A stretch of 57,880 nt of DNA from a virus (taxonomy: Duplodnaviria > Caudoviricetes): positions 1-57,880 of the IMG/VR virus record IMGVR_UViG_3300049473_000108; one strand, written 5' to 3'. Within the stretch, counting starts at the first letter, position 1, and each line of letters opens with the position of its first letter. The notes beneath the pieces were generated by a model that was not told the origin of the DNA, did no database searches, and saw nothing but the letters and a program-made list of their open reading frames with translations. The translations under genes were made by a program, and so were the position numbers. This document shows positions 7,201 to 57,880 of this stretch, piece by piece.

Positions 7201-7880
7201 GCTAAAGCTCTCGCACCTGGCACAGGGACTGCAGCGGTAGGGATGCCAACACCTAAACCCGCAAGCATACTTGTTACGGTGTAGCCAAGTTGTTGGGGGA
7301 GTCGAGCAACGTCTTCAACTGTGATGCCGGGAGCAACCAAGTTTTTAGTTCCGTGTTCTTTTACGAACGCCTCCGAACGCCTTTTGGTGCTTTCAATAAA
7401 TTCATCGGACCAACCTTTCTCTAGGTCGATATCACCTGCTCGAATAGCGGACATGACAGAAGCGGCCATTTCCTCTGGCACACGTAATAAGGCTCTGCCT
7501 AGTGTCTTAAATCCTTTGCCTACGGCATATTCTTTTTCCTGTGCCGCAGCACGCATACCCATAAGCCTTGCCTCTTCAGGCCAGATTTTTTCGTATTCTT
7601 CGGGCGGGGTTTCCTCCCATTCCGGCCCAAGCTCTGGAGGTTTTGCTGGTTGAATTGCGGGCTGTGGTTGCTGAGCAATAAGTCCCATTTGCTGCACAGA
7701 AGGCGTAGCTGGCGCTGTTCGCCTCAGAGGCTGTTGGGCTGGCTTTTCGGCTACACTCGGCTCAAGCCCGAGGATTTCCCTTTGGGCCTCCTCCGGGGTA
7801 AATTCCTCCCATTCAGGCCCTAGACTCTCCGGGGCGGGGATGAATCGTCTATCTCGTGGTGTTAATCCAAGTCCGTTCAT
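1272..7880 (-). CDS. Large internal virion (DNA ejection) protein, 2202 aa
   Basis: Size and position after the nozzle and two other internal proteins; hydrophobic Gly/Ala segment near the N-terminus, charged linker, helical C-terminal region. Confidence 0.75.
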   Translation of the reverse strand: MNGLGLTPRDRRFIPAPESLGPEWEEFTPEEAQREILGLEPSVAEKPAQQPLRRTAPATPSVQQMGLIAQQPQPAIQPAKPPELGPEWEETPPEEYEKIWPEEARLMGMRAAAQEKEYAVGKGFKTLGRALLRVPEEMAASVMSAIRAGDIDLEKGWSDEFIESTKRRSEAFVKEHGTKNLVAPGITVEDVARLPQQLGYTVTSMLAGLGVGIPTAAVPVPGARALAWTAGTAASGVAAYRMAKDQFVSDLYDLVSQECLKNQKREITENEWDSIREKYEAKARDYGLWEAIPEAIGQAAGLKIIRLPVGKLPILKFLKIPAIRNRFARTLATVGSKYGAMQVGEQAQETVTQYGQAAIEAEAGLRKPVPETRLGRLAQAAKEQYPQTTLLTTVTGGLGAIGSRAYDIGARAKEEAIPTAPEVEEEAPIDLLEALTPEQSGLISKVEKDVKAGALTRPMLERLRAEHFPGDNAVGKEIDRLAATLPEEVIELTEVVGPLTKPAQESARVLEEQLGQAEELRRSEEGRRLLRQQLAEEEARGAEAEEMARYQPLPEEWEEVEAGPTGIRPKAEAEEIAKVPEVVAEEKVPPPSELARVKVEKPEPKAEKQPWEMTREEWFKAKPTQIAVETRKFAGKVVYVTPLDKTKTFKTPEAVLEFEHQRFVQQALSEGKPVPAKILEEYPELKPTAEKEPWEMNIQELQNESAAFDKKIAAETERLNRLHPERQRFGEAGIEHLSPEDARRMVAVNDELNRRTSISVKEARERVAIKRAARKAAAKPYVDLTPGTTEWKRMWRENPELQREMIAYAKERAKIPPRIEEKAKAIPEVRVKEEKPAKAEVSPREAKEISVRPTKGGWYKYTNAKTGEVTTGKIDRVARVRSGAVLAFFEGGKKGFPVTKYGKWEHAKPEMEGPGVTIEEARAKAAEAEMAMRETRRKKAAQQEYLVPWIAAAGGVNPTILSGEIRDIIYTTDARGKKKLVRGIPPGFLRKNGKSLDVVVRDAREQGFDVRDEDHLLELIERDLKSAQENDIKGRITRIPAEPTTEKEFIEGAIEHARQELRNQGYTDKQIARAEKGLDAEISAQTYPDEETTYQELRDYFEEISKPPAKKEPARKALHQSKLIRSRSGVAQIIDETEDRYLTRSLSRQKHESYVLKSEPHEIVDKSELSDSEWLDWQASYLEEKSQKAAPKTAEQVATLMEAEKIRDREPKTVRWQLKEVRGKPARKPSSTLVKILSDQLQDETGAISFAKAKEGTIYDNLVTVGKDFIREGHRKYSDFARRMKSAFANAWEKIRGLMMRVWRDATKLLKEETGAITVKPPETPEEMSAWAAQYVKTALKEIADKEEVAKAGKEYDRKYYRDIPKAEDRPKEPSNFETAKDDWFGNKDWAVQVNSIQCSKIQDAIKDALGKKRYDAEARDIDQAIHIYLDLKRNPEHLEEYYWDLTDEQKRIVDLTRRVAQEPGLRAIAKYISEEYEKTGVRALGNNVIFNTIDNYVARAWKIPKKLSTDVLQKFKTSSRHAKHRVFETILEGQAHGYELLVTGASNNLELLKNEIARTVEDRALVKELRTLEWRDTGEPVISDKQLEGYTGIEHPNFTYWAPVGYIKGGKARTYGRDFRVMTFWGAIKEGNTRATKLFESEEEANLFIQGQDKPGQFRIEERRTIWKRQKLYAPDEVAKQLNKILGVSKLKGRWEIGGISLIDALTKYNAVFKSTILLTSFFHHQAFMRSYLFGTRHKTVYEWNPFRMYKEGLKAIKEMRPEIELLVRNGLTLGRMQDWEESILEEEDTIFGRVLSKSKYGKEFVDWANELRRRQADFLFRNFGAGLKAQAALIEYRNALKEHPEMQPEERAKMVAELVNDDFGGLHLGRMKRDPTMQHLYRLFALAPDWTESNVNTMWKSFKSGDKAKTGLYRRFWASVITKGLTATLLTNFLLSLLDKDDDFTSRFKKAWKAGYFRWLYIDVTPIYKLLGGKTEARKYFNLFGHFTDPLKFIIHPFRSMKNKGSVLFRTIFEAFTGTDWKGQRFTTLDEILGFDDKGLYLTTTKEHKLGERKGGRLRWKTVAPSGRIGWAISPSQVPSYIINQLRGVTPVQVQNFLAMLQGEIDGFDTITRNLGLYTATTYPTKKKMTDEFVEEWVRLKKEGGSFFALKDRIERYNDRQRQLGEKGIPISWSTVAKKGVNIIKSEAASESLKRRATGG

Positions 7881-9742
7881 CTCTTTTTCTTCTTTTTCTT
7901 CCTTCTGCGAGTTGTAGGTTCTACTATACCTTGGGCCTTCTGTTCTCCGGGTTGGGCAAATGGACTCTTACCTTCTGTAATCCTTCCCTTCGCATGGTCA
8001 ACTGCTTTCCTATAGACGGCCTGGCCCGTAGGCGTTGTCAACAGGTCGCTATCCGAAGGCGATTTGGTGAGCAAGTAATTTATCTCGTCCTTTGTCAACG
8101 TGGGCACAAGTAAGGGTATCTCGGTCTCGCCTTGCCCAAAATCCACACCAACAGATATTTCAGTTGATACCCCGCCTTGAGCCCTTTTAAGTTCGCCAAA
8201 GTAGCCAGGACCTTTTTCCCTGGGCATCTTCATTTTATAGACAGCGCCACTGGGCGGAGTAATTTCCACTTGTCTGCCATCGGGGTAAAGCTGAATCCAT
8301 TTGTCGGTTTCCTTATTGTGAAAGACCCTAACTCCGGGTTCTGCCTGGGGTTGAAACTTTTCCGAAGGTGGTGTAACCCCTCCTGGGACTTGCGAAGGCT
8401 TGATCGGTTCCTGTTGTGGGGGAAGCACGCGGTTTACGTATTCCTCAATGTAGTCTTGCATATTTGGGATCTCTGACATATCGGCATTCAAGGCCCTTTT
8501 TGCTGTCTCCAGTTCTGCGCCGCGTAGGGTCCCCTCTCGCTCATCGCGCTGGATTATGTACATTTGTCTGCGATTGGCCGCTTCGCGTTCGCCAAATACC
8601 CTATTATATTCCTTAACGGCAGCGCCCCTGATGGCCGCTATATTGCGTTCAGTTAATTCACCTTTTGGCACGTCGGTGAGTCCCTCGACATGGTGGAATT
8701 GATTCTCGGTATCTATCCAGCCCACTCTGCCGTCGGCAAGTTTAACCCAGCTAGCCGCACTTACTGCCGTTGGTTTGCGAGCACCTGGACGTGCCCTTAG
8801 GCCAGCCACTATCTCGCGCTGCTCTGTTGTGGGCTTGGTTATTCCTAAACCATAGAGTTTTGTCATCTCAGGGGACATCGGGGGAGCTGGGCTTCCGTAA
8901 GGAACTATTTCCTTTACTACAGTCCCCTCTTCATTGACCCTGTGTCTGGCTATCCAGTATTTTCCATCCTGTCCTAAATACGGTTTTTCCGTGGCATTCC
9001 TATCCGCTGCTTCTTGCTGTGCCCTGGTGTATTCAGTTCTTTCCTTTTCCGACATGCCACGACCGGCACCAACGCCACCGAACATTGCATTGTATTGCTC
9101 AAGGCTGAGTGTTTGCCTCTGTATCTTGCCATTCTTATCCTTCTGGAAAAGCCTGTAGCCTGTAATGTTGCCTTGTTTATCCTTCAGCACTTCAGGATTT
9201 ATTGCCTGTTGTTCATTGAATGTCCGGATTCCCTCCTGGAGATTCATCATAGTCTTGATGTAGGTCTGAGGCTGTAGAAATGCGAGGGCCTGCATCAGGT
9301 ATTCATCTACTGCCTCCTTGGTATTGCGATGTGGGATGAACTTATCCTTGCCCTCAGGCGTATTGACCTGCACTACAAGTTCCTCGTTTGCCCATGCACT
9401 ACCTGGGTAACCGTAAGCAAATCCGGCCTGCGCCGCTTTTTTGGGCTGATGGATTGCTTTGATTTCTACGCCGTCCGGGATGCGCTTATAGATATTTTGC
9501 AGTCGGGCTAAGGCTGGCTCGTCCTGGCCTTGCTTGTGTAGTTCAAAAGCAGCAGCCAAGTCCTCAAGGCTTTGCTTTTGATTTCTTAGCATCTCGCGTT
9601 CTTCTTCCTGGGCCTTTGCCTCTTTCTCACGTAACCCGAACTGCCTTTCCCAGCGCTCGACATCCCCTGCGCTTTCTATTGCCCTTATGCCAAGGGGCAC
9701 GCCCTGCTGAAATCCCCGTGTCATTCCTTCCCAGAAAGGCAT
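7877..9742 (-). CDS. Internal virion/ejection protein, 621 aa
   Basis: Synteny; Q/E/R-rich helical sequence; basic C-terminal tail; overlaps the next gene (ATGA). Confidence 0.65.
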   Translation of the reverse strand: MPFWEGMTRGFQQGVPLGIRAIESAGDVERWERQFGLREKEAKAQEEEREMLRNQKQSLEDLAAAFELHKQGQDEPALARLQNIYKRIPDGVEIKAIHQPKKAAQAGFAYGYPGSAWANEELVVQVNTPEGKDKFIPHRNTKEAVDEYLMQALAFLQPQTYIKTMMNLQEGIRTFNEQQAINPEVLKDKQGNITGYRLFQKDKNGKIQRQTLSLEQYNAMFGGVGAGRGMSEKERTEYTRAQQEAADRNATEKPYLGQDGKYWIARHRVNEEGTVVKEIVPYGSPAPPMSPEMTKLYGLGITKPTTEQREIVAGLRARPGARKPTAVSAASWVKLADGRVGWIDTENQFHHVEGLTDVPKGELTERNIAAIRGAAVKEYNRVFGEREAANRRQMYIIQRDEREGTLRGAELETAKRALNADMSEIPNMQDYIEEYVNRVLPPQQEPIKPSQVPGGVTPPSEKFQPQAEPGVRVFHNKETDKWIQLYPDGRQVEITPPSGAVYKMKMPREKGPGYFGELKRAQGGVSTEISVGVDFGQGETEIPLLVPTLTKDEINYLLTKSPSDSDLLTTPTGQAVYRKAVDHAKGRITEGKSPFAQPGEQKAQGIVEPTTRRRKKKKKKR

Positions 9743-10718: not shown

Positions 10719-11306
10719 TCAGTTCTCCTTAATGCGGGTTGCGTATGTCAGAACAGCATCCACCCGCTTTTGTTCGTAGTAGTCGTAAATCGCATTGGGC
10801 AGAATGCCCAGGGTAATCATCCCCACCTTTTCACTGAACTTAATGGCGAGCCGATTATTGACAGGCATAAAGCCGATAAGCAGGTCAAAGATTGGTTCCT
10901 GCTCGTATTCAAGACCAAGAAGTTCAGCCAAGCTCCATCTTATCGCTTCGATACTGCCATTTCCCCATAGCTTTTTGAAAAGGCAAAAGTGGATATAAGC
11001 CCTCCTTTGGTTGAAGGAAAACCCATTGAGCCATATTATTCCTGCCTCATTGCCGTCCTTTACTTCCCCGTGAAACAGGACGTAAAATGAGTTCACGTGG
11101 CTCTTGCAGAACTTGACGAAGTCCGCCAGGCACTGCACAGAACCGTCATAGAAAACCTTGTGCACAGAACCTTCCTCTTTCATCCTGCGGTAAAGGCCCC
11201 CAAAATAGAGGTCTGGCAGATTCCGCATACCGTCCTTATCGGTTCGGTAAAGAAAAAGTTGGTAGTCGTCGTTTTTCATCTTAAGCTGTGCAATCATGGC
11301 ACGCAC
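10719..11306 (-). CDS. GNAT-fold acetyltransferase-like virion assembly protein
   Basis: GFMPVNNRLAIKFSEKVGM matches GNAT motif B; position before the ejection proteins as in podoviruses. Confidence 0.7.
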   Translation of the reverse strand: MRAMIAQLKMKNDDYQLFLYRTDKDGMRNLPDLYFGGLYRRMKEEGSVHKVFYDGSVQCLADFVKFCKSHVNSFYVLFHGEVKDGNEAGIIWLNGFSFNQRRAYIHFCLFKKLWGNGSIEAIRWSLAELLGLEYEQEPIFDLLIGFMPVNNRLAIKFSEKVGMITLGILPNAIYDYYEQKRVDAVLTYATRIKEN

Positions 11307-12822
11307 AAAGCCAGGTATTATCTATTCTCACTGCATCCAACCAATCATAGATGAGGGGAGACCAATCAGCCCCTTGGTTTCCTTTAAGGTTGCTAGTGGT
11401 AAAGTCAAATATCGTGTTCATATCGAGAATAAGTATCCTAATGGGCTTACCTATATAGCCTCCCTTGAAATCCGTAATGACGGTACGCTTCGTATTGTGT
11501 GTTATAAATAAGCTGCCCTCGCTAATGTCGGGAGTTGTTTCACCATCTGGAAATTCAATATAACCTCCAGCAACGTCCTTGAGGTACTTTATAGCTACAG
11601 TTTCCGGCATATTAACGCCGCCTCCCGTGGCATTCCGAACATTTTCTAGTCCTCCGTAAATACACCCATTGCCTATGTCTATGGCATACTTTGGTGCCAC
11701 AGCCCCGGCTTTGTTAAGTTCAATAAAATCAAATGCAAAATTGCTAATCGTGTAGTTGCCTGCTCTGTGCATATATATGGCTTTCTCTCCGGAATCGAAG
11801 CCCTTCATTTGGCAATAGAAATTTCTGAGTCCGTATCGTCCAAGATGCTGGTTTTCGGCGTAGATCTCAATGCCGTACTCTCTGCATACACTTGCGTGCA
11901 AGTGGTCGAACATCAAGAAAAACGCAGCCCCACTGCCAGGGTTAATATAAACTCCTTTGTTATTTGCACCGAAGTTGCATTTTCTGAAGTCGCCCACGAT
12001 AAGCTGACCGACCACGTTAAGTCCATTGCTATTGAAATCGTTTGCCACGACCTCCTCGCAAAATAAGAATTCTCGCAGTACAAGTTCCTCGTCTGAAATA
12101 ATTGTAATCCCGTTTTGGCTTGTGCAATTGTTGCCGAGTAAATTCAGCCTCTTAAGTACAAGATATGAAAATCCATCTAGTCTTAGGGCGTCCCGCCCTA
12201 CTCCGAAGATGCTTAGGTCATGAATTTGACTTGACCTAGGTACAGAGCCACCGCTTGTTTTTAGATATATCCCATCGTCCGTGCTCCCATCTCCAAGTAG
12301 ATGCATATAGGCAATCTCAAACCCGTATCCGGTTGCACCTTCAATCGTAATTGCTGGACCTGAGCCATTATTATGCAGGACAGTTCCAGTACCCATACCA
12401 CCAGTGCCGTTAAAACTATCAGCATTCCCCATCAAACGCACGCCATCGTAAAGGAATAGGCCATCGTGGTCGTAATGATTTGAGTCGAGCCATACGACAC
12501 CACCTCCACAGTTCCTAGCCTCATCAATGGCTCCCTGAACCCCTCCATATTTCTCAGGGAAGAAATAATGCTTTCGAGAATGCACTGGAAAAAGTAGACC
12601 AGCGAAGTCATAGGAAGGGTAATCATCTTTCAGTGAACCAAGGTTAATTCCTATCCTGCTCAAGTCCCGCCTCGTCACGGCTCTATCTAAATCTTGGGCT
12701 CGGCCCTCTCTGATCTCGACTCTCTCCTTTATCGCATTGAGGAAGGACAAGAGCGTGGGATCGACATTCTTGACTGTCGATATATCAGGTATGGAAGGAA
12801 GCGCTGTTTCCCTACTCGCCAT
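11281..12822 (-). CDS. Tailspike / pectate-lyase-like parallel beta-helix protein (likely start MASRET)
   Basis: GVQGAIDEA..GGGVVWL, GVRLMG and GTGTVL motifs followed by beta-helix-type repeats. Confidence 0.75.
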   Translation of the reverse strand: MASRETALPSIPDISTVKNVDPTLLSFLNAIKERVEIREGRAQDLDRAVTRRDLSRIGINLGSLKDDYPSYDFAGLLFPVHSRKHYFFPEKYGGVQGAIDEARNCGGGVVWLDSNHYDHDGLFLYDGVRLMGNADSFNGTGGMGTGTVLHNNGSGPAITIEGATGYGFEIAYMHLLGDGSTDDGIYLKTSGGSVPRSSQIHDLSIFGVGRDALRLDGFSYLVLKRLNLLGNNCTSQNGITIISDEELVLREFLFCEEVVANDFNSNGLNVVGQLIVGDFRKCNFGANNKGVYINPGSGAAFFLMFDHLHASVCREYGIEIYAENQHLGRYGLRNFYCQMKGFDSGEKAIYMHRAGNYTISNFAFDFIELNKAGAVAPKYAIDIGNGCIYGGLENVRNATGGGVNMPETVAIKYLKDVAGGYIEFPDGETTPDISEGSLFITHNTKRTVITDFKGGYIGKPIRILILDMNTIFDFTTSNLKGNQGADWSPLIYDWLDAVRIDNTWLCACHDCTA

Positions 12823-12823
12823 C

Positions 12824-14674
12824 CTATTCCTCCGCCGCCTGTATAAGCTCATCTATGGAAGTGGCTATTGCCATCAGATCAATGTCCGAAGTGCCAACTA
12901 CCTCTAGTTCTATATCCTTCCCTGTGTAACCTCCCGGCATCCTGAATATCTCATCGGATTGTATGTTCTTGCTCCATTTCAGAACGCCATCCACATAAAG
13001 CCTGAAATCCACCTCATCATCTGCCACAATCCTGCCCGCATTGAAATTGAAGGGCGAAAAGAGATGAAATACCTTCGATTTCCAAGTATAGGTCAGCTCT
13101 GTTGCGGCTTCTTCCCACGTATAAACATCATAGGAACCAGTATCGGGGTCCTCTATTAGCACATAAAGGTAATCCCCTACCGTGATTACGTCATAAAACG
13201 TTTTCCCGCTGATGGAAAAGTCGATAATCCTCATTTTCTGCATGTTGAGGATAAAACCCGTGGAGGCCCCGCTAAAGAAGGCAAAGTATTTATCATCGTA
13301 GAAAGCGCTCATCAGATTGGCGAGACTCTTGGCTTGCCATTGTTCCTTCGTGAAAAGTTCCCTCGTAAGCAGCGTTCCTCCCTCGCGGCTGACCATAAAG
13401 AGTCCATCGTCAGACGGATAAATAACTCCGCCCTCGGTCGAGACTACGCTTTTAGCTCCTCCAACGCAGGGGCGCTCATAAGGCAAATCCATAAGAGTCA
13501 TGCTTGAGGGGTCCGTGCCCGTAGCATAGTAAGGTACGCCATCCGTTACGGCGACGAGTGTTTCCCCAAAGTGACCCACGCCGACAATATCGTGCCTAGC
13601 CTGGAGAGCGTAACCGTCCGGCCATGCGTAAGGATAGCCAGGCACAGAAAGATAGACCTCGCTGCCCTTGAAACCCGCAAGGATGTTATTGACAAAGAGG
13701 TGCAATCCGGCGAGTTCCTCAGGAGGAGGTTCCCAATCCTCGGTCGCTATTGCCTCGAGGAGCTCATCATCTTCCCGTTTGTCATCGAACCCGTTAGCTA
13801 TGGCATCCTCGATCAGGCAGTCATCGAGGTCTTCTTCCCAATAATCGCCCTCGTTTGGGGCATGTTCGGGCGGAGGAGTGAATGCCTGAATACATTTGTA
13901 TGTTTTGCTCCCATAAGTCACTCGGTCGTCCAGGGAGTAAGCAGTATTTGCCTCATATTCAGGGATGTTATCGGGAGGGTAAGGCACAAGCTGGTACTCC
14001 GCAAGGCTGGTGCCTGTGTTTAGCCGGTAGACTCTAATATGCGTTGCGTTCACCATATCGGCTGGCGGATTTGCAAACCCGCTTAGATGAATGTATTCAT
14101 CCTCCTGCAAATCAACAACATCAGAGGGCGGTGATGGTGCGGATTCCTCCCCCCATCCCGTCACGTAAGTCCAGACATAAGAAATTGACTCCTGGACAAT
14201 GCCATTTCCTTCGCCTTCCCGCACGACTTTCAAAGGCACAATGGGCGCAGGCACACCCAATCTGTAACTTGTAGTGGGCCAGGTGTAAGAAGGTCCTTCT
14301 GTTGCCATATCATAGTTAGTCTGCTTGGGCACGCCATCGCCCGTGAAATAAATGCGAGGCGTGACATCCGGGATGAAGGATTTCACTACATCCACATCTT
14401 CGCCCTTCCAGTTGAGCCATTTATCCACAAGCTTATAGATTGTCTTGGCACCCGCTATAATAACCTGGTCTCCACTGGCAGTTACTTTATCCGAGCCTGA
14501 ATCAATGACGTCCTGGCCCCCTACGTTGAACTCGAACTCCAAATCTCTGAGCGGCTGAATCATGCCGCGCTCGAGTTCGCAGTTCTCAGCAATCTGGGCC
14601 TGATTTTCAGCTAGCAATTTGGGGGAAGTCTTTGGTATCGTCCCCTCAAAATTGGATATTCGGATTACAGGCAC
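12824..14674 (-). CDS. Tail nozzle / tail tubular protein B-like, with an inserted chitin-binding-type module
   Basis: 616 aa; SYVWTYVTGWGEESAPSP, YPYAWP and YTWKSKVF motifs typical of podovirus nozzle/stabilisation proteins. Confidence 0.75.
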   Translation of the reverse strand: MPVIRISNFEGTIPKTSPKLLAENQAQIAENCELERGMIQPLRDLEFEFNVGGQDVIDSGSDKVTASGDQVIIAGAKTIYKLVDKWLNWKGEDVDVVKSFIPDVTPRIYFTGDGVPKQTNYDMATEGPSYTWPTTSYRLGVPAPIVPLKVVREGEGNGIVQESISYVWTYVTGWGEESAPSPPSDVVDLQEDEYIHLSGFANPPADMVNATHIRVYRLNTGTSLAEYQLVPYPPDNIPEYEANTAYSLDDRVTYGSKTYKCIQAFTPPPEHAPNEGDYWEEDLDDCLIEDAIANGFDDKREDDELLEAIATEDWEPPPEELAGLHLFVNNILAGFKGSEVYLSVPGYPYAWPDGYALQARHDIVGVGHFGETLVAVTDGVPYYATGTDPSSMTLMDLPYERPCVGGAKSVVSTEGGVIYPSDDGLFMVSREGGTLLTRELFTKEQWQAKSLANLMSAFYDDKYFAFFSGASTGFILNMQKMRIIDFSISGKTFYDVITVGDYLYVLIEDPDTGSYDVYTWEEAATELTYTWKSKVFHLFSPFNFNAGRIVADDEVDFRLYVDGVLKWSKNIQSDEIFRMPGGYTGKDIELEVVGTSDIDLMAIATSIDELIQAAEE

Positions 14675-20192: not shown

Positions 20193-21056
20193 TTACTTCT
20201 TTACGTACAGGTCCACGAGCGCCTCGGTTTTCAGGCACTTGTACCCATATACGTTCAAGCCTCTCACGATTGTACCGAAGGTGCTTTCCGAACGCAGGCT
20301 TTCCATGTTGGACATTTGAGCGGCAAAACAGAGGGCGCTCTTATGTCCGCAAAGAATGTGCCAGCATGTGTCGTTCCCATCGGTAACGCTGGTCAGGAGA
20401 TTGGAGATATACAGGGTAAGCCTGTCTATCATCCCGATCCGCCCGTTTCTCAGGGTGCTCGTCCCGTCTCCGGTAAGCGAGGCGTCCTTGAGATCGGACT
20501 TCTTGATCATTCCAGCCATCCAGGGAGGAATGACCATCCAGCGACTTTCCTCTGGCACGTTTTGCTCATCCAGAACCGAACCGCAATCCACCATAACGTC
20601 GAGCACATTGGTTTTGGTCAGCAAAACTGCGCTTCCCGTTGTCCCCATGTTGTAGCTTGAGGACTTGGCCCCTGCGGTTGTCCCTTTATTGCTGGCGTGT
20701 GCGTCCGCATAGACATCAGCCAAGAAACCGGTATCAATGGTTATTTTCATCTGCTGGCCGGCATCATCTGACCATCTGTCCATCAAGGGGATGTCTGACT
20801 GATGCTCGTCGATATCATCGCAAATGAAGTTGAAATACTTGGCCTTGTCTATCACCAGCTCCGTGGTTTCCTTCTCGGGATTCTCGATAACAAGGGACTG
20901 ACCCTTGACGTAATCCCGAATGGTAATGTCGGGAGTCTGGCGGATAATGACCTTATCGCCTTGGTTCTTAATCTCTCCAGCGTAGTCCGTGTTTGAGATG
21001 GCGGCGATAACGGTGGCCGCATAGAACTTGACAAGCAACTTTGAACTCCATATTTC
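20193..21056 (-). CDS. Major capsid protein, exon 2 (EIWSSKLLVKFY...; 287 aa)
   Basis: NTDYAGEIKNQGDKVII, LDEQNVP..RW.V.PP, NGRIGMID and GLNVYG motifs of HK97-fold capsids; no independent RBS or start. Confidence 0.9.
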   Translation of the reverse strand, partial: EIWSSKLLVKFYAATVIAAISNTDYAGEIKNQGDKVIIRQTPDITIRDYVKGQSLVIENPEKETTELVIDKAKYFNFICDDIDEHQSDIPLMDRWSDDAGQQMKITIDTGFLADVYADAHASNKGTTAGAKSSSYNMGTTGSAVLLTKTNVLDVMVDCGSVLDEQNVPEESRWMVIPPWMAGMIKKSDLKDASLTGDGTSTLRNGRIGMIDRLTLYISNLLTSVTDGNDTCWHILCGHKSALCFAAQMSNMESLRSESTFGTIVRGLNVYGYKCLKTEALVDLYVKK

Positions 21057-21704
21057 CTGACAGCATTTATGCTGTTTGGACTATTGCATCAGCTTTCAAT
21101 ATTTTTATAATATTGCGAACTGCCACCTCGCTTAGTCTCTGTGGGTCGGCTTTCATAGCGGATAGTTCCTTTTTGGCGCACAATCGAGCAGCATCAATGT
21201 TCTCATATCCATGCTGCTTAATTTGCTTGCCTCTGAGATTATCAATTACCCAGATAAGAAATTTTGCCTGTTCCTTTTTTAAATACATATGGTTCACGAT
21301 GTTTTGAAGAAAAGGTCGTAAGCGTCTATTTTCAAGTTGCCAATAATAGGCATCATGCCAATTGGGATTGTGGCGTCTCGTTGCACACCATACGTTCCCG
21401 CCATGATTTGCTTGAAGGATATCCAGAATGAATTTACAGGTTTCAGAAAGTGCTATTCTTAATCTTGGACAGATATAGATTGAGACTGATATCTCTCCAC
21501 TAACCTTTTCATATTTGCTTCTTTCAATCTGGAAATCCAAACACCCTTCTCCATCTACTAATCCTGCTATGTACTTCCAAGGTAATCGCTTCATGGATTC
21601 TATCTCCGAACTGCATTTTACCTTTACCGTTCCCTCTGGTTCTGGCACCCAAAGTCCAGTTCCAGTTATTCAGAGGTGGTTTTACATCCCCGAAATTAAA
21701 GGTC
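21057..21704 (-). mobile_element. Group I self-splicing intron (648 nt) in the major capsid gene
   Basis: Exon 1 ends in U and the intron ends in G; P1 aucccu/ggggau; P10 auuuc/gaaau; P3 ccaccuc/gaggugg; P7 gacua/uaguc; P9 acagca-uaaa-ugcugu; splicing restores FIP|EIWS in frame. Confidence 0.92.
21067..21648 (-). CDS. Intron-encoded LAGLIDADG homing endonuclease (likely start MKRLPW)
   Basis: YIAGLVDGEGCL single LAGLIDADG motif; FLQNIVNHMYLKKEQA C-terminal motif. Confidence 0.9.
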   Translation of the reverse strand: MPEPEGTVKVKCSSEIESMKRLPWKYIAGLVDGEGCLDFQIERSKYEKVSGEISVSIYICPRLRIALSETCKFILDILQANHGGNVWCATRRHNPNWHDAYYWQLENRRLRPFLQNIVNHMYLKKEQAKFLIWVIDNLRGKQIKQHGYENIDAARLCAKKELSAMKADPQRLSEVAVRNIIKILKADAIVQTA

Positions 21705-21758
21705 AGGGATAAACGTCCCACTATATTGCGGATATCCCGCTGCAACTCCTACTGCCAT
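21705..21758 (-). CDS. Major capsid protein, exon 1 (MAVGVAAGYPQYSGTFIP)
   Basis: AGGAGGT RBS, ATG at 21758, 18 codons joining exon 2 in frame to give 305 aa. Confidence 0.88.
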
Positions 21759-21780
21759 AACTTACCTCCTAAACAGGGGA

Positions 21781-22791
21781 TTACCTTCCTGCGGCAATTC
21801 CCCTTTGGATTGTTCGTTGAAAATCGTCCGAAATCTTTTGAAACTGCTCCTCGGTTATCCTTCCATGGATCCTGTCAGCGGCTGCCTTTCTCAACTCGGC
21901 GGCGCTAACAACAGGCATTTGCGGTGCCCCCGTATCAAAACCAGCGGGTCCCCTTGGGGCCTCCACCTGGTCCTCGAGTTTCGGGGTTTCCTGGGAAGAA
22001 GTTTCGGAAGGAACAGTCTGCGGTTGCCGTCCGCTCTCCCCTTTCCAGAGGTTCACGATTGCAGCAACCCTTTCGGCGTCTAATTTGTTCTGGGCATCAT
22101 CCAGCAAATCCTGGCGTCGCCTGCCTGAAAGAGTGTCAACTTTGGACAACCATTGCAGCCAGTTCGGGTCAGCGTTGATTTTGGGGGAACCATCATCGCC
22201 AAAAAGATCGGGCACAAGGTCGTCGAGTCTGTCGTAGTATCTTTCCTTTGCTGACTTGATTACGGTTTGCCCGACTGTCTTGAATTCACCCGTAAGTTTC
22301 TGGTTTTCAGCTTTAAGGCCCTGGTTCTCCTTAATCAGCTCGTTGACTGTTTTGACCATCTGCAACATCTCTTCTCCATATCCCTCGAAGTCACCCGCCT
22401 GTAGTTCCTTGACGGCGGGTATCTCTACGGGCTTCTTGCTTTCCTCTTCTTCGCCCTCTAAAGGCTTGGGTTGGGAAGCGATGATGGAATTGAGATGCGT
22501 GACGGTCTGTTGCAGATTGGCTATCTGTTCCCTCAAGCGGGGCATCTCGGCGTTGTACTTGCCTTGAAGAACCTCATACTTCTGCTTGAAGGATTCCTCT
22601 GTTTCCTCTTTCACGGGCTTTTGGGGAGTTTCCTTCTCTTGCGCTTTCGGAACTTCCTCTTTGCCCTTTTCAGGTTCTGGAGCCTGGCCCTGTTTTTCCT
22701 TCTCAGTGCCGGTCTTCCCTGCCTCGGCTAGTTGTCTTTGCTTTTCCTCGGCTTCTTTCGCCTGTTTTTCGATCTTTGCTAGAGTACCCAT
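21781..22791 (-). CDS. Capsid scaffolding protein (likely start MGTLAK)
   Basis: Acidic/charged coiled coil with KQKYEVLQGKYNAE motif; directly upstream of the capsid gene. Confidence 0.8.
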   Translation of the reverse strand: MGTLAKIEKQAKEAEEKQRQLAEAGKTGTEKEKQGQAPEPEKGKEEVPKAQEKETPQKPVKEETEESFKQKYEVLQGKYNAEMPRLREQIANLQQTVTHLNSIIASQPKPLEGEEEESKKPVEIPAVKELQAGDFEGYGEEMLQMVKTVNELIKENQGLKAENQKLTGEFKTVGQTVIKSAKERYYDRLDDLVPDLFGDDGSPKINADPNWLQWLSKVDTLSGRRRQDLLDDAQNKLDAERVAAIVNLWKGESGRQPQTVPSETSSQETPKLEDQVEAPRGPAGFDTGAPQMPVVSAAELRKAAADRIHGRITEEQFQKISDDFQRTIQRGIAAGR

Positions 22792-23100
22792 TGTTTTCCT
22801 CCCTGCGAGTTTCCCAGTTTGGGAAGTGTTCGCGTCTAGCCCGCACCGAGCAAGGAACCCATTTCCTGTTTTCGGAGCAGGGAATAAAAAAGCCCCCCTG
22901 GAACCTAAAGCCAAATCACCCTAGGTCCAGAGAGGCTTTCCTTACGCTTCTGGCTTGGCCTGATCCGCTATCGAGCAGCCCCTGGGTCTGGTGTATTTAC
23001 AATACACTTATGACGCCCAATTGGGCCTCACAGTTTCCCCAGGATTTACCCGCTTGAGGGATGAGGCCGTTATGCGATTATCTGATCTCTATTCACCCCC

Positions 23101-24380: not shown

Positions 24381-26429
24381 CTAAACTACTCTTTCACCCA
24401 TTGGCTGCCCCGCAGGAGTTAATGCCTGTGATTGTGCAGTTTGCGGAGCAGGCAGTTGTCTCTGTGGTGGTGGCTGCATAGCAGCCTGTTCTCGTCTCTC
24501 AATCTCTTCCCTTGTCGGCACGATGTCTTCAACAGGCATCTTGAGGTTCCTTACAGCCTCCCTCAGTACCTCTGCCCTTCCCTTTATGCCAACAATCGCA
24601 AAGTCAGTCGGATTATTCGTAGCATCCAGGAATTCTCTCTGGCGTGCCTGAAGCTGTTCTTGAATCACGAGGTATTCACTTGCCCTAGCAACTACGTTAA
24701 TATCCCCTGTCTTGGGTATGTCGTTATCGAACAGCATCACATGGAGCCAATGTTCCCGCACTGCTTCTATCACCGCATCATTGTCGATATTTCTTATCGC
24801 ATCTTTTAGTGTCTTAGAGGCCGCATTGAGCAGCATTGAAAGGCCTGAGGCGGTTTTGCCAGCGCCGCTTACATCCTGCGAACCATAGATATACGCTGGT
24901 ATCCCGCTTTGTTCTGAAGCCTGCTGAAAGTAATATTCGTAGATCCTCATCAACGGCTCAGCGTTCATATTGGGCTGGTAAAAATACACGGCCTGCCGGT
25001 TTCTGCCTTGTTCGTCACTTTTGGTTTTGATAATCTTCCAGGGAAATATGTCCTCAATGTTTTCCCCAGCCTCAACTCTGTCCTTATGCACCTCCACTAA
25101 AGGTCCGCTTGCAAGGCCCATATTATTTACAATCGACCTTGCAGTGGCATTGCATATACGTTGAATGTCTCTCATCCGTTCGGGGACGCCTTTTCCATAG
25201 ATACTATCGTTGGCTTCCTCGAATGAAGCGGAGTAATACGGCCTTCTGCCGAGCGGATGCGGATTCAGACGTGCCATAATCACATAGGGACCGACTTTGA
25301 TAGCGCACACCTGATAATCCATTTCAGGATCGGGAATATCCTTATCCTTCATTCCCCATTCGCGAAGTTTTTTCCCCTGCACTTGGCCCCAGAATCGAAG
25401 CCCGTCTATGGTTGCCTCGGGGTCCCAGCTTTCCTGTGGCCTATCCTCAATTTGCGAGCGCTCGGTGTCGGTCCACAACCAGTCTTTCAGCCCGCCCTCA
25501 CCATACAGGTCGAGCACTGCTCTGATAGACGCTTCATTGCATCCGGGTGTGCCGATGAGGGCAATCAAATCCGATCTTCTGAAGCGTTCGCGCTCAATGA
25601 AATACCCGTCTTGAATCGACCTGGCTCCTGGGCTCGGGTAGGCATCGAATGGGGATAGTCGGTCATATTCGCGCTGCAATGCAGTTTTGACCCTTGGAGT
25701 TGACCTTCCATTATTGCCTTGCTCCCAGACGAGCTTTTTCTTTTTCCTGACCGTAGGGCCTTTCATAAATGCTGCGGGATAGGTGACAAGATCGCGTATG
25801 AATTTCCTTAGCGCGGTATAAAAACCTCCCTCGCGGAAGTCATCCTCGATCCTTCTTTCCTGGACGTGTGCGATTTCCTTTGCCTGCTTCATTATCCGGG
25901 AATGAATCTGTTCCCGTATCTGGTTAATCCTGCCCCTTACATCCTCGACGCTGAGGGCATTAGGACCCTGTGCCATCAGTACCTGAGTGGTCTCCCCGAT
26001 AACCTGTCTGGCGATCTGCATTTCAATGTCATTCGGCAAATCAGGCTCGGGAGTCGGGTCAATTCCCCAGGGCTTTTCACCGGGGGGAAGCATAATATCG
26101 CTGATCCATGCCTCTGCTGCCCTGCATTTCATATTGGTAAGCATCATGTAGATATCGCAGCCACCGAATTTCCTTATCTCTGCCAGGTCTTCGGGGTCAT
26201 ATTGACCCTTTCTCTGGCGAGCACATTGCAAAAGGCGCTGTTCGATGTCCATCTTTGCTATTTTTGCTGCTTCCCAGCAGGTTTGAATATGGGCAGCCAG
26301 GGATAGAATCTCAGGCTTGTTCTGCTCCTTTTTGGCCTGCTCTTTGGCTTTTTCCGTCTCAAGGAGCTGCTTGTTGGATACGACCTGGACCAGACCAACT
26401 CCGACTGCTTCTGTCGCTTGTAAAGGCAT
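24381..26429 (-). CDS. Portal protein
   Basis: 682 aa; YGKGVP..MRDIQ..CNA..R..VNN and GAGKTASGLSML motifs; Gln/Pro tail; follows terminase. Confidence 0.88.
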   Translation of the reverse strand: MPLQATEAVGVGLVQVVSNKQLLETEKAKEQAKKEQNKPEILSLAAHIQTCWEAAKIAKMDIEQRLLQCARQRKGQYDPEDLAEIRKFGGCDIYMMLTNMKCRAAEAWISDIMLPPGEKPWGIDPTPEPDLPNDIEMQIARQVIGETTQVLMAQGPNALSVEDVRGRINQIREQIHSRIMKQAKEIAHVQERRIEDDFREGGFYTALRKFIRDLVTYPAAFMKGPTVRKKKKLVWEQGNNGRSTPRVKTALQREYDRLSPFDAYPSPGARSIQDGYFIERERFRRSDLIALIGTPGCNEASIRAVLDLYGEGGLKDWLWTDTERSQIEDRPQESWDPEATIDGLRFWGQVQGKKLREWGMKDKDIPDPEMDYQVCAIKVGPYVIMARLNPHPLGRRPYYSASFEEANDSIYGKGVPERMRDIQRICNATARSIVNNMGLASGPLVEVHKDRVEAGENIEDIFPWKIIKTKSDEQGRNRQAVYFYQPNMNAEPLMRIYEYYFQQASEQSGIPAYIYGSQDVSGAGKTASGLSMLLNAASKTLKDAIRNIDNDAVIEAVREHWLHVMLFDNDIPKTGDINVVARASEYLVIQEQLQARQREFLDATNNPTDFAIVGIKGRAEVLREAVRNLKMPVEDIVPTREEIERREQAAMQPPPQRQLPAPQTAQSQALTPAGQPMGERVV

Positions 26430-26977: not shown

Positions 26978-28567
26978 TTACGTCCATCCCCTCGCGCTCG
27001 GCTTTTCTTTGCTGGAATAAGTTTCCCCCATCGGCACCGCTTCCTTGAACTTGTGGGCCACGGCAAGCGTACGGAAGGCATCGGCGGTATTGGAGTTTTC
27101 ATCATGGAGAGGACTGTCACGGTAACATGCTAAGGTTTCATTCCACTCTTTGCGGTACCTCTCAAGTCGGTCTGTGCCTTCCGCAGTAGCCTCTTCATCA
27201 AACCAACAGATTCTTAATACTTGACGCATCTGTTCAATGCCGCTTAGGATTGAGAGTTTTGGCGCCACACGGAACTTGATACCCATCTCCTTGGCAGCAT
27301 CTATTATTGTCCGGCCCGTTTGATACTCGTGTTTTTTGACATCATGGGGAGCCCAATGCTGTCCGTATTCAAATCTCCGCTTTTCTTTTTTTTGAAGCAG
27401 GATATTCCTGTAATGCTCAAGGCCTTCCCCTGAGTTACGGTAAAAATCCACGATATGAATATTGCGACCAATATCCTGCGTGAACCAGATGACATTCTCA
27501 TCATTATATCCAAGATCCCACCATGTATCGACAAGAGCGCCGGATTGAATGGGGACTCGAGTGATTCTACCTTCGTTCCTTATCAATTTGAATTCATTGG
27601 CGAAATATGTCCCTTTCAGAACAATTTCGAAGGCTTCTTCAGGCGTGGAGGGATCTTCCCTTTTCATATCGTCGCCTTGTACGTTCCACTCCTTGACGTA
27701 CCATGCCTTTTGCGCTGCACTCAATTTGATGCGAAGACTCGCTTCCAGCTGCTCGAAATATTCCTTTTGGTAATCGTAAATTACAATGCCGTGAGGATTA
27801 ATGACGTTCTCAGGGTTTCTGAACCATGGAAAGAAAAAGAACTTATAATCCATTTTGGAAAGAACGGCTTGCTTGTTAGCAATCTGCTTTTCGAGGTCCT
27901 GGGCCATCTTGCACATGTCATGGAAATCGCCACCGCTTCCATAGCTTGTAGACTCGATACTGATAACGCCCCCTGCGGTGGGATGCACGGACCGTACTGT
28001 GCCTGTTTTGACCTCCCTCGCCGCTTTGGGGTTCTTAGCGCACATATAGCCGTATTCACTGATGTGAACTCGATGATAGGTGCCGGAACGCCCGGAAGTG
28101 GTAACACGCATTGACGAGCCATTGGCGAAGTAGAGGACTTTGCCGGTAACTTCCTTGGTTAAGGGATTTGCATCCTTGATGAATTGCGGTAAATTCTTAT
28201 AGGCAAAGTGAATTTTGTCGTTGAAAATACGTTCAGCATCGTCTTGCCTGTGGGCTACGATGCAAGCGTGGAGATTGGAATTGAAAAGGCAATCATCGAG
28301 ATAGAGGATGCAGAAAAATGTAGTTACGCCTGGCTGTCGGTGCTTGAGCACGATGTTGCAAAACCAAAGACCGAGATAAAGGATTTTCTGTACGAGATTC
28401 ATCTTGAACTTAATCTTATTAGCCCCCCTATCCACAATCCAATACAGATTATCCAGCCTCCATCTCCGGCTGCCGAGCTTCCGCATCCGTTCTTCTCTGG
28501 CTTCGTCAGTCCAGAGCCAATCGTTTAAACCTTGTTCCGTCTGCTGCTGTGTTGCTAATTCCTGCAT
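26978..28567 (-). CDS. terL: Terminase large subunit
   Basis: VLKHRQPGVTT Walker A variant, HISEYG Walker B, IESTS, WDLG, APHD and HDENSNTADAFR nuclease motifs. Confidence 0.92.
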   Translation of the reverse strand: MQELATQQQTEQGLNDWLWTDEAREERMRKLGSRRWRLDNLYWIVDRGANKIKFKMNLVQKILYLGLWFCNIVLKHRQPGVTTFFCILYLDDCLFNSNLHACIVAHRQDDAERIFNDKIHFAYKNLPQFIKDANPLTKEVTGKVLYFANGSSMRVTTSGRSGTYHRVHISEYGYMCAKNPKAAREVKTGTVRSVHPTAGGVISIESTSYGSGGDFHDMCKMAQDLEKQIANKQAVLSKMDYKFFFFPWFRNPENVINPHGIVIYDYQKEYFEQLEASLRIKLSAAQKAWYVKEWNVQGDDMKREDPSTPEEAFEIVLKGTYFANEFKLIRNEGRITRVPIQSGALVDTWWDLGYNDENVIWFTQDIGRNIHIVDFYRNSGEGLEHYRNILLQKKEKRRFEYGQHWAPHDVKKHEYQTGRTIIDAAKEMGIKFRVAPKLSILSGIEQMRQVLRICWFDEEATAEGTDRLERYRKEWNETLACYRDSPLHDENSNTADAFRTLAVAHKFKEAVPMGETYSSKEKPSARGWT

Positions 28568-31882: not shown

Positions 31883-32914
31883 CTAAGGACTCCTACCCTT
31901 CGGGACTTCTTTCCCAAACCTCTTATCCAATATCCCGTGTATCTCCGCCATCCTCCTTTTATGCTTCTCCATCTGCTCAGGACTGACGGAAGGCAGATGC
32001 TTCTCTGCCAATTCAATCCCCGCTTCGAGCTCTGGCTTTCTCGCTTGGGCTTCTGCCAGCCATCTGTTGATATGCTTCAGGATGCCGCTCTGCGTTTTCC
32101 TTTTCCCGGGGTTGTCGATATTCCACTGGATGCATTTCAGTAGCTCCTCCCCTACGTTTATGCGACGGTAGGTCTTTTTATATTCGGATAGCTTTTCCTC
32201 GGTAAGTTCAAATTGCTTTCCGTTCTCTAATAGGAAAAAGAATTTCATATTTTCTTTTTCTTTATATATTTCTTTTTCTTTTAAGGAATCAGGAATCAGA
32301 GAATCAGGGCGTCTAACTGCACTTGTTTTAAGCCGACTTTGGTTTAACGTTGAGCCGAGTTCGGCTGAAGCTTGAGCCGAACTTAACCTATTATTCTTGA
32401 CCGAATTGCAAGACCGGCATAAAACTTGAAGATTAGTCGGATCATTTGTGCCACCTAGCGATCCTGGTATAATATGGTCGATTGTCAAATCTTCAGTCTT
32501 CCCACAGTAAGTACATTTCCTCCCATCCCTTTCAAAAATTTCCTCTCTCTCCTTTTCGGTTAAACGCTGTGCGGTCAAGTAATCCTTTATTCCCGGTGGT
32601 GGCGGAATTACACTGGGAGCCTCTTTGTAGTGTGGTTTCTGATGCTTTACAAAATTGGGCACATATCCGTAATCCTTACCATTTACGGAATATTTGCCTA
32701 TTAATTCCTTGGTAACTAGCTGATTGAGTAACTCATTTATATCACAGTTGTCGTACGGTAAAACTTCCGCTTTAATCTTCAATGGCCTCCATTCAAATCT
32801 TCCTTCTCGGTCAGCGTAACACCATAATCCAGCAAAAAGTAACCTAGCCAAAAGGTCACATTGTGCAACATCCTCATTATGAAAAAATCCCGGCTTAAGA
32901 TTGCGGGCTCTCAT
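31883..32914 (-). CDS. Phage replication initiator with in-frame HNH domain (likely start MRARNLK)
   Basis: RARNLKPGFF..ARLLFAGLWCYADREGR N-terminus; RDGRKCTYCG..DHIIP..GG....NLQVLCRSCN HNH; DnaD/DnaT-like C-terminus. Confidence 0.8.
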   Translation of the reverse strand: MRARNLKPGFFHNEDVAQCDLLARLLFAGLWCYADREGRFEWRPLKIKAEVLPYDNCDINELLNQLVTKELIGKYSVNGKDYGYVPNFVKHQKPHYKEAPSVIPPPPGIKDYLTAQRLTEKEREEIFERDGRKCTYCGKTEDLTIDHIIPGSLGGTNDPTNLQVLCRSCNSVKNNRLSSAQASAELGSTLNQSRLKTSAVRRPDSLIPDSLKEKEIYKEKENMKFFFLLENGKQFELTEEKLSEYKKTYRRINVGEELLKCIQWNIDNPGKRKTQSGILKHINRWLAEAQARKPELEAGIELAEKHLPSVSPEQMEKHKRRMAEIHGILDKRFGKEVPKGRSP

Positions 32915-33203
32915 TCTTCTTCTTAACCGTCTCTTTTTCGTCTCTGACTTCAACTATCCCTTCAGGCTTGCAAAGGTACATTTTGTCAGCATAATGAATT
33001 ACCGGCGCAGTTTGCCAGGGCTTATGCATAATGCCCATACCCATTCCTTCCGGGTATTGTTCGCAGACATTGTGCTGAGGGAACTCAATGCCTATAAATT
33101 CATTCTCAGAATTTGGGGCCACTTTTATACTATATGATGGTTTTATCTCTAGTTCAATCGTGACTTCGTGGATTCCGCAACTCGTTCTAAATGTTTGCTT
33201 CAT
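32895..33203 (-). CDS. Hypothetical protein
   Basis: 102 aa; ATGA overlap with the RAMP gene. Confidence 0.5.
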   Translation of the reverse strand: MKQTFRTSCGIHEVTIELEIKPSYSIKVAPNSENEFIGIEFPQHNVCEQYPEGMGMGIMHKPWQTAPVIHYADKMYLCKPEGIVEVRDEKETVKKKNESPQS

Positions 33204-48712: not shown

Positions 48713-49030
48713 ATGAAAGATTTCACAGCAAGGATAGATAAAAAGAGCGAACGCGCTCAAGATTGGGAGCAGATATTCGGCACAGATGAAATCAATATCA
48801 AGTCGCCCATTCCGATACGCGTAAACGTGCCTAATCATCCGAACACATTGGCCTACGAGCTCGACCTAAAGCTTATAACAAAAGAGCAGAAAGCGAGACT
48901 TATAGAGCACATAGCGAGACGTTTTAATATACCGAAGCAGGAAGTCGAAAAGGACTTGGAAAGCATAGGCGTTCCGATACTCACAGACGACGTGATTGTC
49001 ACCGTTCATAATCCACAAAAGTGGATTTGA
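48713..49030 (+). CDS. Hypothetical protein
   Basis: GAGGAG RBS. Confidence 0.6.
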   Translation: MKDFTARIDKKSERAQDWEQIFGTDEINIKSPIPIRVNVPNHPNTLAYELDLKLITKEQKARLIEHIARRFNIPKQEVEKDLESIGVPILTDDVIVTVHNPQKWI

Positions 49031-49095
49031 TGTTGACCCTTTCCCTCCAAAATACTATTCCTACCTTCTATCACCGACAGAAGGAGGGAATAGCT

Positions 49096-57753: not shown

Positions 57754-57880
57754 TTTATCTCTGGAGGCATTTCCTCAACCAACCCCCATTTGTCCTCTAG
57801 TTTCCACATTCGCTCTTGCAGAGCATTCGCCCTATCCTGAGCTATTTTCTGTTCAAGGCGAATGGAAAGTTCCTGGACAT
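57754..57880. repeat. Terminal direct repeat, copy 2
   Basis: Exact copy of 1-127. Confidence 0.95.

Follow-up and report, generated by a model that had tools for sequence, protein, structure and literature searches.

The locus described here raises the question of how a phage can produce its major capsid protein from a gene that is cut in two. It belongs to a virus of the Caudoviricetes, recorded in IMG/VR as IMGVR_UViG_3300049473_000108, and the whole record of 57,880 nucleotides (nt), below called the window, was analysed. On its minus strand the major capsid gene is split by a 648-nt insert between the codons for Pro18 and Glu19. Our explanation, to which we assign a probability of roughly 0.93, is that the insert is a mobile group I intron with a LAGLIDADG endonuclease gene, which would be removed from the capsid transcript by splicing and would spread by homing. 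All positions of exons, intron and helices given below refer to the minus strand, and a caret in a peptide marks the exon-exon joint.

Exon 1 (21758-21705) consists of an ATG and 17 further codons, encodes the peptide MAVGVAAGYPQYSGTFIP and has an AGGAGG Shine-Dalgarno sequence 7 nt upstream of its ATG. Its final base is a U, the wobble partner in helix P1, and its reading frame meets a TAA two codons past its end. Exon 2 (21056-20193; 287 codons and a stop) begins with EIWSSKLLVKFY. The joined exons read MAVGVAAGYPQYSGTFIP^EIWSSKLLVKFY..., with ...TFIP^EIWSSK... at the joint, and encode a major capsid protein of 305 amino acids (aa). Exon 2 matched the profile of phrog_267, "major head protein", at 6.7e-58, the match beginning only from profile position 43 on. 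A database search with exon 2 retrieved 6537 relatives, and the best 119 homologues, the window's own protein aside, were 67-79% identical to it. Most of these (117 of 119) were uninterrupted proteins of 304-312 aa that start M...YSG(T/N)F(I/V)PE(I/V)WSGKLLVKFY, and the exon 1 peptide aligned with their N-termini, such that the joined N-terminus was reproduced residue for residue. The initial annotation had proposed this split gene; its exon coordinates and joint, as well as P1, P10, P3, P7, P9 and the terminal G of the intron, all hold on the minus strand, and the comparison with intronless homologues agrees with it. Identity to major capsid proteins of cultured phages reached up to 51%, the nearest cultured relatives being bacterial phages, and PF25209 is precomputed for the capsid homologues.

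At the DNA level 80 close capsid loci were inspected, of which 38 were classed by script and the remainder by eye from its printout. Seventy-seven could be assessed, and 76 of these were uninterrupted at FIP^E. The proline codon before the site ended in G in 28 of the 38 script-classed intron-less alleles, in C in six, in T in three and in A in one, while in intron-bearing alleles it ended in U in 14 of the 17 aligned. The public database protein from the window is a 281-aa fragment (P0001) that starts at TTG 21038 and lacks the 24 initial capsid residues. The truncation by automated annotation, which had been foreseen, is thus real, and automatic gene calls miss such split capsid genes. Two more proteins within the top 120 homologues, P0080 and P0117, are truncated like P0001, and the cause may be the same as in the window.

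The intron extends from 21704 to its terminal G at 21057, and has a guanine-cytosine (GC) content of 40.4% compared to 51.3% in exon 2. Its helices were read directly from the sequence. P1 (21710-21686) is a hairpin in which exon AUCCCU (21710-21705) forms 6 base pairs (bp) with the guide GGGGAU (21691-21686), located 14 nt into the insert; the splice site is held in the wobble pair U21705.G21691. Just 5' of this guide, AUUUC (21696-21692) pairs in P10 with GAAAU (21056-21052), the first five bases of exon 2, and next after the P1 guide comes J1/3, GUAAAA. The 5' strand of P3, CCACCUC (21679-21673), pairs across approximately 540 nt with GAGGUGG (21129-21123). P4 and P5 (21665-21636) comprise P4 CUGG/CCAG, the AA loops J4/5 and J5/4, and the P5 hairpin. 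The 5' strands of P6 (GGG) and P6a (CGGU) lie at 21634-21626 and pair with 21150-21143; in this pairing GGG-AA-CGGU with GCCG-A-CCC closes a loop of about 475 nt, which holds the endonuclease gene. Neither P4/P5 nor P6/P6a had been named in the initial annotation. The 5' strand of P7 (21139-21133), G-(A bulge)-GACUA, pairs with its 3' strand, the S element UAGUCC (21083-21078), which is preceded by J8/7, AUGCAA. Between the 3' strand of P3 and J8/7 lies P8, a 33-nt hairpin (21122-21090) composed of CAGUU-CG-CAAUAUU, the loop AUAAA and AAUAUUG-AA-AGCUG. The P9 hairpin (21075-21060), ACAGCA-UAAA-UGCUGU, is followed by CAG, the last base of which is the terminal G. The G-C pair beside the bulge of P7 would correspond to the guanosine site of known group I introns such as that of Tetrahymena. 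By eye, P2, P5abc and P7.1/7.2 were absent from the window intron. The sequence features by which group I introns are recognised were found, i.e., the U.G pair in P1, the terminal G together with P10, the bulged P7 with its G-C pair, and covarying P3-P9 with a P3/P7 pseudoknot.

Covariation was assessed in related introns. A search with the intron open reading frame (ORF) gave 13 loci on viral contigs, and a motif scan added further ones; the scan yielded at least 119 matches, mostly chance occurrences in unrelated genes, and a match was retained only if the J1/3 motif preceded it and the R element and P3' followed. Loci are designated by L and a number. L074, L115 and L128 were discarded, as no R element or P3' was detectable in them. 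This left 19 distinct related introns on viral contigs besides that of the window. The alignment comprised 17 sequences, the window and 16 relatives; L001, L006 and L090 were omitted for an insertion in the P8 loop, which had been misaligned in a 20-sequence version. Across the 47 proposed pairs 94.3% of cells were paired, compared to 77.7 +/- 0.9% after shuffling and 34-42% when the pairing partners were slid by 1-3 columns, and 25 of the 47 pairs showed changes on both sides. Chance does not account for the helices, because they covary across the 17 related sequences and none of 500 shuffles reached any of the five measures. The group I architecture proposed initially is in this respect borne out.

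The strongest support came from the helices bridging the ORF, P3 (99.2% of cells paired, compensatory changes in four of seven pairs) and P6/P6a (100%, three compensatory pairs). P7 was paired in 100% of cells with two compensatory pairs, including a change from GACUA/UAGUC to GACUG/CAGUC, and its second pair was G-C in 17 of 17 sequences. The outer six pairs of P8 were paired in 98% of cells (four compensatory), P4/P5, helix 3 of the alignment, in 91.9% (four pairs with changes on both sides), and P9 in 83% (six compensatory pairs). The terminal pair of P1 was U.G in 14 sequences and C-G in three, and two P1 pairs changed on both sides. The relatives had a P10 of 3-8 bp at their own junctions. 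Among the relatives with script output, the top- or second-ranked G-terminated 3' splice site restored the capsid frame in 15 of 16, and neither listed candidate did so in L006; the junctions of the window, L009, L010 and L012 were read by hand.

The ORF in the P6a loop runs from ATG 21594 to TAA 21069-21067 on the minus strand (175 codons and a stop) and contains a single LAGLIDADG motif, YIAGLVDGEGC. The 19 aligned proteins, from the window and 18 relatives, all start MKR(L/V)(S/P)WKY.AGL.DGEGC, and the ORF is intact in all of them. The start was placed at ATG 21594 because MKR(L/V)(S/P)WKY is common to the 19 proteins, and an upstream GTG was ruled out as start by the same conserved beginning. 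Residues G11, L12, D14, G15, E16 and G17 were invariant in 19 of 19, and the motif helix with its acidic catalytic residue was thereby found in place. A family profile matched I-CreI, I-MsoI and I-CvuI in the PDB at 8e-11 to 1e-4. The AlphaFold2 model, with a predicted local distance difference test score of 88.7 and a predicted template modelling score of 0.83, has an alpha-beta-beta-alpha-beta-beta-alpha core (H6-16 E E H51-64 E E H89-102) and three more helices. The best solved structures found for it by Foldseek were I-CvuI (5a74, E 1.1e-8), I-CreI and I-MsoI, all at probability 1.00. The LAGLIDADG identity suggested by the initial annotation is in agreement with both lines of evidence, and protein sequence and modelled fold support the ORF as a single-motif homing endonuclease of the I-CreI type.

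The 3' end of the endonuclease gene is written over the ribozyme core. The dual-coding stretch (21150-21067, minus strand) is 84 nt long, corresponds to codons 149-175 and the stop, and comprises P6a', P6', J6/7, P7, P3', P8, J8/7, P7' and P9/L9, the UAA stop falling in the P9 loop. That the ORF passes through P7, P3', P8 and P7' and ends in this loop had been noticed before, and it covers P6a' and P6' as well. The invariant residues D150, P151, R153 and L154 (D-P-x-R-L) lie on the invariant RNA GACCC.CA..GACUA of P6'-J6/7-P7. The 3' strand of P3 is at the same time codons E156 and V157 and the first base of A158, and residue 157 varies between V, A, K, R, T and S along with the variant of the P3 5' strand; amino-acid changes in the tail appear because P3 compensations 540 nt apart force them. 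In most relatives the ORF frame stops at a UAG of the S element, and in the window a different length of P8 shifts the frame to end in L9. The C-terminal tail of the endonuclease looks to be shaped by RNA rather than by protein function, since its residues track the ribozyme columns and its end varies with the length of P8. The family is a clean natural example of dual coding for RNA and protein, in which the co-evolution of ribozyme and ORF is testable on about 20 natural variants.

Directly before the ORF, a small hairpin GGA...UCC (21607-21595, minus strand) holds a GGAG Shine-Dalgarno sequence right before the AUG. In the minimum-energy folds of 16 of the 20 family members the AUG was immediately preceded by the 3' arm of a hairpin, with the GGAG in or beside the hairpin, and a role as translational brake is possible. 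As a separate observation, an 8-nt block just upstream of this hairpin (21611-21618, minus strand; GCAGUUC in the window, consensus of the relatives CGCAGUUC) was kept in nearly all family members, although the non-coding part of the P6a loop varies elsewhere. It could form an alternative fold with the GAAC of P6/P6a, or act as a promoter or operator.

The relatives share the insertion motif of the window in two capsid lineages, that of the window itself, ...EIWSGKLLVKFY..., and ...EIWSDE(I/V)IAAYKKNLV... In L078:235-883 and L112:6684-7332, both on the minus strand, the splice site is found 11 nt further downstream than the usual FIP^E, following UUUGGU; these two have a different guide, GCCAAA, restore the joined frame and carry the core and endonuclease of the family. 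In L010:2864-3509 (plus strand) it lies approximately 7 nt downstream of FIP^E according to a hand reading with an N in the guide. Judged from these sequences, the splice site has probably moved within the conserved motif in all three. In L001:1029-1625, L006:3001-3582 and L090:3685-4182 the ORF runs on through the 5' strand of P8 into an insertion of about 150 nt in the P8 loop, which encodes a Cys-rich C..C...H...C..C tail, intact in L001 and L006 and shortened by a stop in L090; no Pfam match was found for this tail. L153 has a family member exactly at FIP^E, in which the P1 loop is long and P4 is of a variant form. Different introns were found close by in other loci, i.e., after ...NTDYEGE in L174/L175 (about 400-1500), with an ORF rich in helix-turn-helix on the reverse strand, after ...QVWSGKLV in L213 (about 540-1500), with a double-motif LAGLIDADG ORF, and after ...AAISN in L057. 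As read from the sequences, an intron hotspot covers approximately the first 50 codons in this family of capsid genes.

Introns without an ORF, approximately 150-185 nt long, were found in other phage genes (L134:10540-10700, L136:8420-8580 and L135:8767-8949) and have the P4-P6-P7 core motifs of the window intron. The Rfam group I model RF00028 gave 34.8 bits (E 2e-7) for L134 and 41.9 bits (E 1.5e-9) for L135, and in its alignment of both the assignment of P3, P4-P6, R, P8, S and P9 agrees with the structure presented here, for which this is an independent check. We tentatively suggest, while holding the opposite to be somewhat more probable, that these findings outline an unnamed and widespread family of at least 21 LAGLIDADG group I introns specialised on FIP^E(I/V)W, with shifted splice sites, a C-terminus written by the ribozyme, P8-loop extensions and a hotspot of at least four sites, and that such endonucleases aimed at capsid genes may serve as weapons between co-infecting related phages. 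The accessible part of a report on phage PhiPA3 describes its intron endonuclease as a weapon between co-infecting related phages (PMC11620839). The outcome of mixed infections could also be biased by an endonuclease that targets a conserved capsid motif.

If the insert is a mobile group I intron, the following course of events can be proposed. The capsid pre-messenger RNA (pre-mRNA) would fold into a compact core of P1 and P3-P9, with no P2. An external guanosine would attack after U21705, held in the P1 U.G wobble, P10 would align exon 2, and the terminal G21057 would be exchanged. The outcome would be a messenger RNA (mRNA) for the 305-aa capsid protein, 648 nt shorter than the genomic sequence, with a predicted junction UUUAUCCCU-GAAAUAUGG, and the most abundant late protein would depend on the efficiency of a ribozyme. 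The endonuclease, presumably as a homodimer, would cut intron-less capsid alleles at the site coding for FIP^E(I/V)W, and repair after cutting would spread the intron. The low GC content of the intron and the presence of its family in two divergent capsid lineages are consistent with mobility. A ribosome translating the last 27 endonuclease codons would unfold P6'-P9, and translation of the ORF should have to be limited because ribosomes would melt these helices; by analogy with I-TevI of phage T4 it is probably low or late, possibly through the Shine-Dalgarno hairpin. The competition of translation with folding, as put forward in the initial annotation, would be of the same kind as for I-TevI. 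Catalysis, homing, action as a homodimer and translational control are all proposed here from the likeness to known systems.

Several observations count against this explanation and were weighed. Firstly, on the whole window RF00028 gave no match at its gathering score of 50 bits, nor at E <= 0.1, and on a 1-kb region it gave only 15.1 bits (E 0.44, over 21292-21059); L134-L136 likewise gave no match at the gathering score. The initial annotation had named a search with group I models as a check, and the gathering score was not reached in it; in the weak alignment P8 and P9 as well as the R and S elements were placed correctly. The model cannot span the P6a loop with its ORF. Placement of P3-P6 inside the ORF by Rfam was dropped, and P3 and P6 were taken from the covarying pairs. 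Secondly, structure and alignment were both derived from the same sequences, a bias towards the structure in the slid control, and the 17 sequences are related, so that the counts of 0/500 shuffles are not probabilities. Thirdly, PF00961 scored 22.7 bits on the window ORF, below its cut-off of 23.1; of four relatives, L001 (24.6) and L006 (26.8) passed, and L009 (22.2) and L061 (16.1) failed. The window hairpin before the endonuclease AUG has only 3 bp and -2.4 kcal/mol, with no shuffle control. Finally, RNA data came from one metatranscriptome run, in which 38% of the sampled words of the sequence were present. Four short contigs from this run contained no spliced joint, and one of 235 nt (21620-21853) crosses the 5' splice site unspliced. 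The unspliced contig could stem from pre-mRNA or from contaminating DNA and is evidence neither for nor against splicing.

Among other explanations, the one that fares best is that the insert is a group I intron which no longer splices by itself and depends for folding on a host factor or on its LAGLIDADG protein acting as maturase. In favour of this, the core is minimal, with no P2 and a short P5 and P9, its 3' half is constrained by coding, and all 19 proteins of the alignment show a conserved, undisrupted ORF. In addition, LAGLIDADG maturases are known in bacterial introns, e.g., that of the Thermotoga 23S intron, as given in the accessible part of a review (PMC3984707). However, L134-L136 have the same core and no ORF, so the core can persist without an encoded protein. 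The sequence itself does not separate maturase dependence from autonomous splicing, and we regard the maturase explanation as unlikely.

It is very improbable that the capsid gene is simply broken, be it by a decayed element or by a free-standing endonuclease gene. The phage would then either be defective or make a truncated capsid protein from TTG 21038, and this is indeed exactly the public gene call; spliced RNA was not seen in the one RNA run. However, exon 1 is intact, with its own Shine-Dalgarno sequence and ATG and a residue-for-residue match to the homologues, all ribozyme helices are intact and covarying, and the FIPEIWS segment is probably not dispensable, being conserved in 117 of 119 homologues. 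The genome is also complete and abundant in its sample. In the collection the record is classed as 100% complete and with direct terminal repeats, and an exact 127-nt direct terminal repeat was found at 1-127 and 57754-57880. In one DNA run, probably the source of the contig, the whole contig was present at 26.7x word depth. The capsid gene must be functional, because the genome is complete and was found at this depth.

LAGLIDADG genes occur also in inteins, some group II introns and archaeal introns, but an insert of any other type is scarcely conceivable here: an intein was ruled out by the insert not keeping the reading frame and meeting a stop two codons past exon 1, a group II intron by the 648 nt, 528 of which are ORF, leaving no room for six domains, an archaeal bulge-helix-bulge intron by flanks that form P1 and P10 and by nearest cultured relatives that are bacterial phages, and translational bypass by a length well above any known ribosomal hop. 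Group II introns with LAGLIDADG genes were reported by Toor and Zimmerly (2002), as cited in the accessible part of PMC3706429.

The surroundings of the capsid gene agree with its identity. The structural module on the minus strand includes the large terminase (26978-28567) and the portal (24381-26429), and directly upstream of exon 1 lies a 377-aa ORF (21781-22914, minus strand), whose sole family match is phrog_13678, of unknown function. From its position this ORF is scaffold-like, and the capsid gene is thus identified by its profile match together with its synteny with the portal gene and this positional scaffold candidate. The phage is probably temperate, since genes for an integrase (49021-50145) and a RecT-like protein (46395-47807) are present. 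Transfer RNAs were not found in the window. Elsewhere in the genome, a 2202-aa ORF (1272-7880, minus strand) and its neighbours at 7877-9742 (621 aa) and 11281-12852 (523 aa) had no PHROG match at 1e-5, and 12824-14674 encodes a homologue of an "internal virion protein" (phrog_511, 3.9e-119). A 356-aa ORF (31883-32953, minus strand) combines an N-terminal "replication initiation protein" region (phrog_16167, 1.7e-47) with an HNH endonuclease region (many PHROGs, approximately 1e-17), and may be a second homing-type nuclease of this genome.

Introns in phage capsid genes have been described before, and the rarity implied by the initial annotation was overstated, with such introns in print from LittleE, Tuc2009 and crAss-like phages. 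Of these, the intron of mycobacteriophage LittleE carries an I-CreI-like LAGLIDADG gene. According to the accessible part of its description (Pope et al., 2013; PMC3706429), its capsid gene contains an 819-bp intron, probably of group I, the splicing of which was proven by reverse transcription-polymerase chain reaction and N-terminal protein sequencing. Like the window intron it carries a single-motif LAGLIDADG gene, of approximately 177 aa, but this gene is on the opposite strand and hence neither co-translated nor overprinted on the ribozyme. Compared by description, the insertion place is also another one, and the capsid lineage, which has a delta domain, is unrelated. Group I introns in major capsid genes are further described in the accessible parts of the reports on the Delta and Zeta groups of crAss-like phages (Yutin et al., 2021; PMC7886860) and on the major head protein of the lactococcal phage Tuc2009 (PMC2504315; PMC3706429). 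They share with the window the type of gene and the same trouble with annotation, whereas phage lineages and apparently insertion sites are others, again compared by description. In a literature search that covered few subscription papers and no supplementary tables, nothing was found on the present intron family or on a FIPEIW target site, and the intron tables of two papers (PMC7886860; PMC12880540) might list relatives.

ORFs with 3' ends reaching into the core are a recognised class, as stated in the accessible parts of two reviews (Hausner et al., 2014; PMC3984707; Edgell, Gibb and Belfort, 2010; PMC2988022). The latter describes how, in the td intron of T4 with its I-TevI gene, translation of the ORF impairs splicing unless an RNA hairpin sequesters the ribosome-binding site. 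As far as described there, the ORF of td is, like that of the window, in the P6 loop with its 3' end in the structured core. I-TevI, however, is a GIY-YIG enzyme in a gene of nucleotide metabolism, while the window has a LAGLIDADG enzyme in a capsid gene and an overlap from P6a' through P9 (84 nt). The enzymes I-CreI, I-MsoI and I-CvuI share with the window enzyme the single LAGLIDADG motif, the same core fold and being encoded in introns. They are only about 20% identical to it and come from algal chloroplast ribosomal RNA genes instead of a protein-coding phage gene, and, unlike in these three, the C-terminal helix of the window enzyme (residues 155-174) appears to be dictated by the ribozyme sequence. 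Current understanding is not overturned by any of these findings, though the features of the family may deserve a short description. Introns of this kind in capsid genes are already documented, and the window intron adds a member to a sizeable family that targets FIP^E(I/V)W.

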